Shown here one piece after another: positions 49,916-51,649 of a stretch of DNA of 64,000 nucleotides (the stretch's first letter is position 1; every line of letters starts with the position of its first letter). The position numbers and the translations under genes were made by a program. Under the pieces are notes generated by a model. The model ran no database searches. It saw only the letters and a list, made by a program, of their open reading frames with translations, and was not told the origin of the DNA. Source of the stretch: a virus (taxonomy: Duplodnaviria; Heunggongvirae; Uroviricota; Caudoviricetes); IMG/VR virus record IMGVR_UViG_3300011008_000036, positions 56,848 to 120,847 of that record. One strand, given 5' to 3'.

Positions 49916-51649
49916 TTATATTTTTTTGCAATAATCTAAAGAAATGTATCCTAATCCAGATTTTAATTTACCCCATTTTTTTGCACCTTTACCACTAGCT
50001 TCTTCAATAATTGTGTAAATTCCATTATCTGTAATTTTACCAACTATATCAAAATTAGTTCCAGGACCTTTTCTAATATTTAAACCAGTATCATCATTTA
50101 CTTTAACTTTGTATGATGTGTTATTATTTTTTTCTCCAACAGTTTCAACATTACAATTTCCATTTAATATGGCATTAACTTTATTTGCTATGTCACCATA
50201 ACGGGAATATAAAAAATCACCTGGACAATTTCCAACAATAAATGTTCTACCATTCTGACGAATAAGTATTAAATTTGACGGTACTGAAATGCATCCTACC
50301 ACTGTACGTCGACCAGCATATTCATTTGCTCGATATTCTATATTATGTAATGATAATTTCGTAAATGGTGAATTATAAATTTTTAATGAACGATATTTAT
50401 AGTTAATATAAGTACCTCTACCATGTAGTGCACATATAGCAGATACAACATCAAAATTTCTATTATTTTTTGTATAATAATAATTTTGTGAATTTCCGTC
50501 CCATAATGCTAATTCATTAATGAATACATTAGTTTCTCTATCATTCATTGTTAATAATTTCTCAGTGAAATTTTTATTTGATAAATATTCTTCACAAATA
50601 TCTACTATTTTAAAATCTTTCTTGTTATAAACTCTAATGGATGTTGATCCATCTGATCTATTACAAATAGAATATTTATATTTTAAATTATTCAATATTT
50701 CTTTAATTCTATCTATTTTTCTTTGTTTCTTAAAATGAAAATCTACTCCATAATATGATCTGTTTCCATTCTTTAATTTATTATATATATAATGACCATC
50801 TGCTTGCACTGCTACCAAAAATTTAACAAAATCATCAGATAATCCTAGTCCTTCAGTATTCTCAAAATATCCTGCGGTTGGAATTGATAAATATTTAGTA
50901 TTAAATAAATTTTGAAAATTATCTATCATTAATGATTTATCATTGCAAAACAATCTATCATTATAAACTAATCTATGATCTAAAGTTACCATCAGACCAC
51001 ATTTATTTTTATAAACATTATCATGATATAGCTCAACAACATCATATACTTTGTCAAATCTAATCGACATATCATTCTTACAAAATGTTGCAACTTCGTC
51101 ACCAATTCTGATATCTGCTAATAATACCCATCCTGATTTTGTTAATAATTCGGTATAATATATTGGTAGACAACTCTTATTTGCAGTCCATCTGTGTGGG
51201 ATCATATTTTGTTCCTCTGTATGATATATCAATGATTTGTCACATTTCCATTTTAATTCTTTAATATTATTTCGTTTACAAATATCAGCACATAATTTTA
51301 TTAATGATTCATATGCTTTATCTGAAACTTTATAAGGTTCTTTATTTTCAATATTGGAAACTTCTATTGTTACAGCTCTCTGATCAACTAGTGGTGTTGA
51401 CGTACACCAACTTCTATTACATTCTTCAACATACATTGCAATTCTACCATCAGACCCAACACAATAATTGGAAGATGCTTTTCTGTTTTTATCAGCAAAT
51501 ATATTTCCAACTTGTTCTACTGATAAATTTCCTGCAACGCAATGTATACTAATTGTATCAATATTCATGGTTCTTTTTCCAGAATGATTTGGAGACATTT
51601 TTACATATGTAACCAACGGACTATTTGTAAATTTTTGTGTTGCTGCCAT
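49916..51649 (-). CDS. endolysin: N-acetylmuramoyl-L-alanine amidase (amidase_2/PGRP) + C-terminal SH3b cell-wall-binding domain, interrupted by an intein
   Basis: N-extein IDTISIHCVAGNLSVEQVGNIF...SNYCVGSDGRIAMYVEE...DQRAVTIEV...HRWTANKS; C-extein CPGDF...; spliced junction recreates KSCPG zinc-ligand motif; C-terminal LNIRKGPGTNFDIVGKITDNGIYTIIEEA...WGKLKSGLGYISLDY = SH3_3-type; AGGGAGA RBS before ATG at 51649. Confidence 0.75.
   Translation of the reverse strand: MAATQKFTNSPLVTYVKMSPNHSGKRTMNIDTISIHCVAGNLSVEQVGNIFADKNRKASSNYCVGSDGRIAMYVEECNRSWCTSTPLVDQRAVTIEVSNIENKEPYKVSDKAYESLIKLCADICKRNNIKELKWKCDKSLIYHTEEQNMIPHRWTANKSCLPIYYTELLTKSGWVLLADIRIGDEVATFCKNDMSIRFDKVYDVVELYHDNVYKNKCGLMVTLDHRLVYNDRLFCNDKSLMIDNFQNLFNTKYLSIPTAGYFENTEGLGLSDDFVKFLVAVQADGHYIYNKLKNGNRSYYGVDFHFKKQRKIDRIKEILNNLKYKYSICNRSDGSTSIRVYNKKDFKIVDICEEYLSNKNFTEKLLTMNDRETNVFINELALWDGNSQNYYYTKNNRNFDVVSAICALHGRGTYINYKYRSLKIYNSPFTKLSLHNIEYRANEYAGRRTVVGCISVPSNLILIRQNGRTFIVGNCPGDFLYSRYGDIANKVNAILNGNCNVETVGEKNNNTSYKVKVNDDTGLNIRKGPGTNFDIVGKITDNGIYTIIEEASGKGAKKWGKLKSGLGYISLDYCKKI
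50228..51172 (-). mobile_element. intein (315 aa, LAGLIDADG-type) inside endolysin amidase domain
   Basis: Starts CLPIYYTELLTKSGWVLLADIRIGDEV (block A), ends NGRTFIVGN before extein Cys (penultimate Gly rather than His); internal FLVAVQADGH and ELALWDGNS resemble the two LAGLIDADG motifs. Confidence 0.6.

Follow-up and report, generated by a model that had tools for sequence, protein, structure and literature searches.

A putative LAGLIDADG intein at the zinc-ligand cysteine of a phage endolysin amidase, and the unannotated allele family to which it belongs

Group I introns with homing endonuclease genes occur in the lysin of a Streptococcus thermophilus phage and in lysK of the staphylococcal phage K, where a self-splicing mobile element lies in a conserved part of a lysis gene and has to be removed for the enzyme to function. 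Among the inteins, the cluster A1 mycobacteriophages carry one in the RDF protein (Bethlehem gp51; Turj99 gp50) and one in the TOPRIM primase (Turj99 gp53), and a sentence excerpted from Kelley et al. 2016 holds that 'all phage ... intein-containing proteins bind nucleic...' (PMC5050341). In a survey of some 800 inteins of actinophages, published in 2025, 19 host genes are listed, and the terms lysin, endolysin, amidase and peptidoglycan were not found in it; none of the 224 mycobacteriophage Lysin A genes considered by Payne and Hatfull (2012) was interrupted by an intron or intein. The post-translational self-processing of endolysins of gut and clostridial Firmicutes phages is represented by CD27L and CTP1L, in which cleavage of a linker releases the domains, with no Hint domain, ligation or mobile element being involved (Dunne et al. 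2014, PMC4110038). The present analysis concerns the window, that is, the whole stretch of 64,000 nucleotides at positions 56,848 to 120,847 of the IMG/VR record IMGVR_UViG_3300011008_000036 (Caudoviricetes), and, within it, an endolysin gene whose Amidase_2 domain is interrupted by an in-frame insert of 315 amino acids. The insert is best explained as a genuine, splicing-competent selfish intein in the catalytic centre of the endolysin, to which a probability of about 85% is given on the grounds of sequence comparison and structural modelling.

The endolysin is encoded by a single open reading frame (ORF) of 577 amino acids with an ATG start. In the precursor, Pfam recognizes Amidase_2 (PF01510) at residues 27-160, over profile positions 2-128 of 131 (58.8 bits, with a cut-off of 26), and SH3_3 at residues 521-573 (49931-50089). 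The insert begins with CLPIYY... at residue 160 and ends with ...IVGN at residue 474, being placed between ...HRWTANKS and CPGDF.... When it is deleted, the Amidase_2 match becomes complete and contiguous (residues 27-163, profile positions 2-131 of 131, 66.9 bits), and the endolysin PHROGs run unbroken over the junction (phrog_20388, E 3.6e-59, residues 6-213). Thus, the ORF and the Amidase_2 and SH3 domains named in the earlier note, which was made from the letters alone, were found as it had described them, the boundaries it gave were exact to the residue, the deletion restored the zinc-ligand motif KSCPG, and the comparison of the extein-only sequence with the Amidase_2 and SH3_3 profiles, which it had proposed as a check, reached the end of the amidase profile across the junction. 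The Pfam match, the zinc triad, the wall-binding module and the phage context together identify the protein as an endolysin of the Amidase_2 (T7-lysozyme/PGRP) type.

The placement of the insert at a zinc-ligand cysteine, also claimed in the earlier note, was borne out by the complete Pfam match and by the invariance of H36, H152 and C160 (spliced numbering; C160 corresponds to C475 of the precursor) in 20 insert-deleted homologues. These three residues pair with H17, H122 and C130 of T7 lysozyme, with weak scores and with a manually entered T7 sequence; against the same reference, the ..IHC.. and H-x7-CP(G) motifs agree, with identical spacing. The spliced extein as a single sequence matched nothing among the PDB sequences, and a profile of 20 extein sequences retrieved from the PDB only AmpDh2 and one further amidase, neither alignment spanning the cysteine, so that the mapping of the zinc ligands relies on Pfam, the invariant columns and the T7 lysozyme alignment. 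As the cysteine left after excision is the +1 residue of the C-extein, the insert directly precedes the third zinc ligand, and Cys475 doubles as this ligand and as the predicted +1 splice nucleophile.

An empty site was found in a syntenic relative, a 123-kb metagenomic contig (L006), which was located through its intein-free protein P0133, the latter being 74% identical to the window protein over the exteins. The flanking genes of the two loci have about 75% nucleotide identity, and the endolysin genes align codon for codon, with a clean gap of 945 nucleotides at codon 160 and Cys160 at the junction, where the intein-free sequence of codons 150-170 reads ...CGGTGGCTAGCCAGGAAAGAT followed directly by TGTCCAGGGTTATATTTA.... 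A separate domain-level indel is also seen in these otherwise collinear genes: the L006 endolysin (6001-7320, 439 amino acids) has an extra Phage_lysozyme2 domain (PF18013) between the amidase and SH3 domains, which the window gene does not have (the corresponding place being 50115-50151).

The insert shows the features expected of an intein, namely Cys1, the T-x-x-H of block B, a terminal Asn followed by Cys +1, a Hint fold and a precise in-frame insertion, together with those of a LAGLIDADG endonuclease, namely two helices each ending in an acidic residue within a central domain like I-DmoI, of the alpha-beta-beta-alpha-beta-beta-alpha pseudo-dimer type. The AlphaFold 2 model of the insert, built with an alignment of 47 sequences, had a pLDDT of 94.1 and a pTM of 0.92, and its top Foldseek matches in the PDB were the solved inteins TliVMA (7qsu, E 2e-10), PI-PfuI (1dq3), PI-SceI (1vde) and PI-TkoII (2cw7), with E-values from 2e-10 to 1e-6 and a probability of 1.0. 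In these proteins (TliVMA 7qsu/7qss), the same Hint domain is interrupted by a monomeric endonuclease with two motifs; they differ from the window intein by a sequence identity of only 10-13% and by chains of 366-537 residues as compared with 315 amino acids. The central domain of the model matches the monomeric LAGLIDADG enzyme I-DmoI (TMt 0.55-0.61). By sequence, the insert retrieved nothing meaningful from the PDB chains, and its sole profile match was PHROG 32482 (PhoH-like; positions 81-290 of 589), presumably because members of that PHROG carry a related intein.

The search of deposited phage genomes with the insert (tblastn) gave 162 phage records, with E-values down to 1e-18, of which 152 covered at least 80% of it; the identity was 27-29% in the best-ranked records and below 60% in all 162. 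The host proteins of these homologous elements, in unrelated phages, were the Toprim primase, ribonucleotide reductase (RNR) alpha and beta, PhoH and DNA polymerase. The Toprim primase of the cluster A1 mycobacteriophage Turj99 is annotated as intein-containing, and the annotation of the RNR alpha of Shivani (T5-like phages) reads 'contains intein splice site'; the other two homologues inspected are in the RNR beta of PA-SR01 and, at the P-loop, in the PhoH of an Acinetobacter phage. In all four, the element begins with Cys and ends with Gly-Asn, the next residue is Cys, Ser or Thr, and the insertion falls within a catalytic motif. The cluster A1 RDF and TOPRIM inteins (PMC5050341) belong to the same lineage as the window intein: they have in common with it Cys1, the T..H of block B, Cys at position 4 of block F (F:4), the penultimate Gly and the terminal Asn, as well as a length of about 312-317 amino acids, a double-motif LAGLIDADG domain and a K-K-x-R-K-I-x-R segment. 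The TOPRIM intein of Turj99 aligns with the window intein over the full length at 29% identity (E 8e-13). However, the window host is a peptidoglycan amidase and not a nucleic-acid enzyme, its +1 residue is a metal ligand, the amidase inteins are hosted by very AT-rich gut phages instead of actinophages, and the sequence identity is low.

Two other kinds of element were considered and rejected, namely a group I intron containing an ORF in frame and a bacterial intein-like (BIL) or other Hint autoprocessing domain. The latter type, which sits in variable parts of non-conserved proteins, mostly has no +1 nucleophile and brings about cleavage instead of splicing, was rejected in view of the insertion in the most conserved motif, the Cys +1, the terminal Asn and the restored motif. 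Thus, the identification of the insert as an intein with a LAGLIDADG homing endonuclease, proposed in the earlier note, is supported by the exact boundaries, the empty allele, the homologues, the Hint and LAGLIDADG folds of the model, the invariant splicing residues and the purifying selection on related copies; the two LAGLIDADG-like motifs which that note had pointed out (..AVQADG and ..LALWDG) are present.

In the proposed sequence of events, a 66-kDa precursor would be made in the cytoplasm. An N-S acyl shift at Cys1 (C160 of the precursor) would be aided by Thr63 and His66 of block B, as their conservation suggests; the +1 Cys (C475) would accept the N-extein by trans-thioesterification; Asn315 (Asn474 of the precursor) would cyclise and free the intein of 36.8 kDa; and an S-N shift would yield the endolysin of 29.2 kDa with the restored motif ...HRWTANKS-CPGDF... 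(all masses calculated). The lysin introns are removed at the RNA level, whereas the window intein would be removed at the protein level, so that a full-length precursor protein would exist. In the AlphaFold 2 model of the whole precursor (pLDDT 87.7), the amidase, intein and SH3 modules are each folded, the Foldseek matches include the XlyA catalytic domain (3hmb/3rdr) and AmpD (2y2b), and the helix that completes the amidase domain (481-495) falls downstream of the intein. As both this helix and C475, the third zinc ligand, are thereby separated from the rest of the catalytic domain, the precursor is very probably inactive, and lysis would in all probability depend on splicing.

The conservation of the element was assessed in the best 120 database relatives of the full protein, of which 119 carry an intein, only P0092 being intein-free. 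Among these 119, the intein lies at exactly this site (...K[A/S]-C...GN-CP[G/A], the hyphens marking the junctions) in 114 complete and 2 truncated copies, at a second site only in two, and at both sites in one; the mean pairwise identity of the 114 same-site copies is 54%. The set used for the residue counts comprised 117 amidase-borne inteins (106 distinct sequences), extracted with a pattern that imposed C1 and allowed G, A, S or H at the penultimate position, T63, H66 and C294 not being imposed. T63, H66, C294 and G314 are invariant in this set, as are P3 and the imposed C1, and the Asp residues of the LAGLIDADG motifs are kept in 114 (D125) and 113 (D225) of the 117. In the alignment of 47 sequences, C1, P3, L10, T11, G14, W15, G24 and N315 are invariant. 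Six related viral contigs gave dN/dS values of 0.08-0.17 for the whole intein and 0.05-0.15 for the endonuclease domain. Accordingly, the penultimate Gly, which the earlier note had singled out, is present, although it is no oddity of this copy and belongs, like the block F Cys294, to the whole intein lineage; the Cys at F:4 is also common to the primase, RNR, PhoH and RDF relatives.

Several results weigh against the interpretation as a splicing-competent intein. The usual features that the insert lacks are the penultimate His, replaced by Gly, and the Asp at F:4, replaced by Cys, and these replacements are lineage-wide, so that the chemistry may differ in detail; a match to a curated model is lacking too, the insert having none in Pfam (E<=10) or NCBIfam (E<=1), so that the standard intein profile proposed as a check in the earlier note came out negative. 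The window copy stands alone as a divergent lineage, no other copy sharing more than 47% identity with it, and the purifying selection was measured on its relatives only. The splicing of the amidase-borne copies is predicted from sequence and models, the inactivity of the precursor is deduced from geometry and ligand identity, and the RDF intein, for which experiments exist, is only a distant homologue (21%). The same unusual residues, missing profile matches and divergence of the window copy could be taken to mean that the insertion is dead, a decayed intein or tolerated domain which stays in the mature protein, with the phage using a crippled endolysin or another lysin; only 64 kb of the roughly 120-kb genome lie in the window, and a second lysin may be encoded elsewhere. 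Such an outcome is highly improbable. The splicing residues are all intact in the window copy and do not vary within the family, the Gly is common to the family and was shown to allow splicing in the RDF member, the relatives have a dN/dS of about 0.1, and a permanent insertion that cuts off one zinc ligand and the last helix from the remainder of the catalytic domain would probably inactivate a conserved enzyme.

The preferred reading of a splicing intein leads to the question of its class. In most inteins, the position F:4 is occupied by Asp, while Cys is found there in inteins of the WCT triplet (Tori et al. 2010, PMC2807308). A penultimate His is typical rather than required: phage inteins often do without it, those of class 1 in mycobacteriophages show little conservation at this position, and the Bethlehem gp51 RDF intein, which is treated as class 1, 'splices completely' with a penultimate Gly and more slowly as the G316H mutant, its endonuclease being toxic to E. 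coli (Kelley et al. 2016, PMC5050341). The Turj99 gp50 intein (317 amino acids) corresponds to that of Bethlehem gp51 by its length and by R157 and G316, and its full-length pairwise alignment with the window intein (E 3e-8) has Cys1, the F:4 Cys and Gly-Asn in common. With Cys1 and the T..H of block B, the window intein is class 1 by the published definitions as applied to its sequence. Class 3 was tried and rejected: of the WCT triplet, the window intein has the F:4 Cys only, B:12 being Leu (M, I, V, L or C in the family, never W) and G:5 being Val, and these two positions, Cys1 and the Cys at +1 set it apart from class 3 as defined.

Nevertheless, a splicing route of the class 3 style, in which Cys294 would serve as the first nucleophile or as an obligatory relay and Cys1 would be dispensable, has to be weighed, as the F:4 Cys is otherwise the hallmark of class 3 (PMC2807308) and the phage milieu is alike in the class 3 DnaB intein of Bethlehem. 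It is also noteworthy that Pro1 variants of the same amidase intein allele were found in L009 (JAZUGJ010000073.1, a metagenome-assembled genome (MAG) of Paludibacteraceae), P0171, P0184 and P0199; these variants (GKL-PLPID...FITGN-CPG) keep the T..H of block B, the block F Cys, Thr at G:5, Gly-Asn and Cys +1. The Pro1 is not a sequencing error, because it recurs in three or more clusters formed at 50% identity, and the MP-Be DnaB intein, the prototype of class 3, has Pro1 as well (PMC2807308). For the window intein itself, however, such a route is unlikely: Cys1 and the intact T..H are present, the class 3 Trp at B:12 and Thr at G:5 are not, the +1 residue of class 3 inteins is almost always Ser or Thr (PMC2807308), and the related RDF intein is regarded as class 1. 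Judged from their residues, the Pro1 variants may follow a splice route like that of class 3 or class 2 which arose within a class 1 allele, and, since they have no first nucleophile, the lineage could conceivably be caught in a transition from class 1 to class 3.

The class 1 intein of the window would also be an element in motion. Among the relatives, some pairs of copies have exteins with 33-37% identity and inteins with 61-66%, and others, in the opposite direction, exteins with 80-85% and inteins with 40-47%, a discordance expected of an element that is still moving between alleles. Together with the conserved endonuclease, which is of the double-motif LAGLIDADG type and looks active from its residues, the discordant histories point to a selfish homing element. 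In a mixed infection, endolysin alleles without the intein would be cut by the freed endonuclease in the conserved stretch that codes for H-x7-CPG, and the repair of the cut would copy the intein in; this stretch, which many phages infecting the same hosts have, would make a suitable homing target. The second insertion site lies in the same Amidase_2 domain right after the first zinc-ligand His (...IH-CLP...VGN-C[M]AG...; P0002, P0074 and P0093), with P0002 (914 amino acids) bearing inteins at both sites. The inteins of this site form a sister clade, being 55-69% identical to one another and 33-43% identical to those of the site interrupted in the window.

The earlier note had further suggested that the intein could impose a timing or conditional layer on lysis. 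A domesticated, regulatory intein of this kind would splice conditionally, in response to redox or zinc, and act as a checkpoint that gates the activation of the endolysin and hence lysis. The idea draws on the zinc site split by the intein (H36 and H152 upstream, C475 downstream), on the three invariant cysteines (Cys1, Cys294 and Cys +1) in or beside the splice centre, on the retention of the allele in about 100 amidase clusters at 50% identity and on the 'tuned' splicing for which Kelley et al. 2016 argue in phage inteins with a penultimate residue other than His. Zinc gating or redox gating is conceivable because the +1 Cys binds zinc in the enzyme and two further invariant cysteines, Cys1 and Cys294, sit in the splice centre. 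In other inteins, zinc reportedly inhibits splicing through Cys +1 (Mills and Paulus, in 2001), and the Belfort laboratory is said to have obtained redox-trapped inteins of SufB and DnaB. In the canonical holin-endolysin model, the endolysin accumulates in the cytoplasm, and the holin sets the timing of lysis. The window endolysin has no obvious N-terminal signal sequence, as read by eye, so that, under this model, it would accumulate in the cytoplasm with its timing set by the holin. Moreover, no sequence feature tells regulation apart from ordinary parasitism; the conservation of the endonuclease, with the purifying selection on it, and the discordant histories of intein and extein argue for ongoing homing and not for fixation by host benefit; and the intein is absent from the close syntenic relative L006 and from all related endolysins in deposited phage genomes. 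The one Gly family member tested, the RDF intein, splices fast (PMC5050341). Thus, the conditional layer found no support, the element looking mobile and its tested Gly relative being fast; a domesticated checkpoint is improbable, and it is equally doubtful that splicing is gated by zinc occupancy or redox in such a way as to make endolysin maturation and lysis conditional on host physiology. Ordinary homing by a splicing intein remains the preferred account.

The distribution of the lineage was assessed by phmmer against 1.84 billion representatives, which yielded 2212 clusters with E<=1e-3, of which 92 had E<=1e-30. Among the best 150 representatives (clusters at 50% identity), about 99 are Amidase_2 hosts, of which 7 were already among the earlier relatives, 58 were recognized by a custom hidden Markov model of the extein, and 34 by Pfam. 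The wall-binding modules of the intein-bearing amidases vary (SH3, PG_binding_1, CW_7, choline-binding, SPOR, LysM and others), and their source labels are plain amidases or hypothetical proteins. As no Pfam intein model matches any of 54 intein-bearing relatives, and LAGLIDADG_3 is found in only 3 of them, routine annotation is blind to this intein lineage. Two carriers of the lineage match Amidase_5 (PF05382, E 6.8e-49), a different family of peptidoglycan hydrolases. In the viral loci L028, L030, L040, L044, L046 and L048, distant members of the lineage stand after ...AK-C and before a sequence of the [S/T/C]xNFGxxYG type, which, as read by eye, resembles a motif of family A DNA polymerases; these inteins end in Gly-Gln and not in Gly-Asn.

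In 50,697 deposited phage genomes, no intein-bearing relative of the endolysin was found, and blastn of the window positions 49000-53000 against the same genomes gave no match. The record MT839475.1, taken up as a possible deposited intein-bearing amidase on account of an alignment reaching query residue 255, is in fact intein-free. The closest deposited exteins belong to endolysins without an intein, in human faecal phages of Ruminococcus, Oscillospiraceae, Acutalibacteraceae and Clostridium innocuum. The species-representative genomes contain only four loci, all in MAGs; the element resides mainly on phage contigs. No report of an intein in an endolysin or lysin was found in the open-access literature and bioRxiv, an earlier mention elsewhere (e.g., InBase) being possible.

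The window is a very AT-rich segment of a phage genome (about 25% GC), and the neighbours of the endolysin gene include a virion structural protein and NrdD. The coordinates of the features of the locus are collected in Table 1.

Table 1. Features of the interrupted endolysin locus in the window (positions from the first nucleotide of the window; the basis of each assignment is given in the last column).
Feature	Position	Strand	Basis
Endolysin precursor ORF (N-extein, intein, C-extein)	49916..51649	-	577 amino acids; ORF list, Pfam
Shine-Dalgarno sequence GGGAGAA	51656..51662	-	6 nt 5' of the endolysin ATG, read from sequence
N-extein, residues 1-159, most of Amidase_2	51173..51649	-	Pfam; contains H36 (51542-51544) and H152 (51194-51196)
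Putative intein, 315 amino acids, precursor residues 160-474, 36.8 kDa	50228..51172	-	boundaries, 945-nt indel, homology, fold
Block A (CLPIYYTELLTKSGWVLLADIRIGDEV), with the Cys1 nucleophile at 51170-51172	51092..51172	-	invariant positions
Block B T-L-D-H (intein T63, H66)	50975..50986	-	T63 and H66 in 117/117
LAGLIDADG homing-endonuclease domain, about intein residues 100-275	50348..50875	-	fold, conserved Asp
LAGLIDADG motif 1, KFLVAVQADG	50795-50824	-	catalytic D125
LAGLIDADG motif 2, FINELALWDG	50495-50524	-	catalytic D225
Block F (VVGCISVPSNLILIRQN), with Cys294 at position 4	50252..50302	-	C294 in 117/117
Block G (RTFIVGN) and C-extein +1 Cys475 (50225-50227)	50225..50248	-	G314 in 117/117; C475 and P476 invariant
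C-extein: Cys475, last amidase helix (481-495), linker, SH3_3, stop	49916..50227	-	Pfam; precursor model
Perfect palindromic hairpin, likely bidirectional terminator	49879..49906		12-bp stem, then T-run; between the convergent endolysin and 73-aa genes

The terminator scan found three sites as compared with 0.4 expected. Convergent with the endolysin gene is that of a protein of 73 amino acids (49650-49871, plus strand) with two hydrophobic stretches, as read by eye, which is a candidate holin; beside it, a hydrophobic protein of 118 amino acids (49182-49538, plus strand) has a HEFGH metalloprotease-like motif. Neither of the two has a PHROG or Pfam match. On the other side, a mechanically called ORF of 523 amino acids (51542-53113, plus strand) overlaps the start of the endolysin gene; translation probably begins instead at the ATG at 51758, which follows AAAGGAGAG and would give a protein of 451 amino acids. 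This protein is extremely acidic (D/E/N-rich) and of low complexity, with no family match, and its counterpart in L006 has 411 amino acids.

A second intein, of 318 amino acids (about 40792-41745), is located in NrdD (984 amino acids; 39754-42708, plus strand) at the catalytic NCCRL motif, with the junctions ...GTLSN-CFSKDQF...GIQTHN-CCRLLS and thus a canonical His-Asn-Cys end. The Pfam model Intein_splicing gave it 31.8 bits, below the cut-off of 35.8, and here, too, the fourth position of block F (VYCVEV) is Cys. There is no detectable similarity between the NrdD and endolysin inteins, and no other copy of the endolysin-intein family is present in the window. Farther away on the plus strand, a protein with polyphosphate-kinase C-terminal/PLD-like domains (18890-20662, E 8e-35) and an SMC_N-type ATPase (7541-10108) are encoded.

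The locus represents a new kind of host protein for a known, non-canonical family of phage inteins, and the window copy is one of a large unannotated allele family. This departs from the nucleic-acid-handling host range reported for phage inteins, a peptidoglycan amidase being a main host of one intein lineage, with two insertion sites that each lie beside a zinc ligand. As the insert is unannotated and invisible to profiles, the mining of endolysins for antimicrobials mis-sizes such proteins and may express inactive precursors. The intein-bearing amidases would be natural examples of an enzyme metal site assembled by protein splicing, useful for conditional-activation designs, and they widen the known range of intein sites and, through the Pro1 variants, may widen the range of splice mechanisms within one allele as well.

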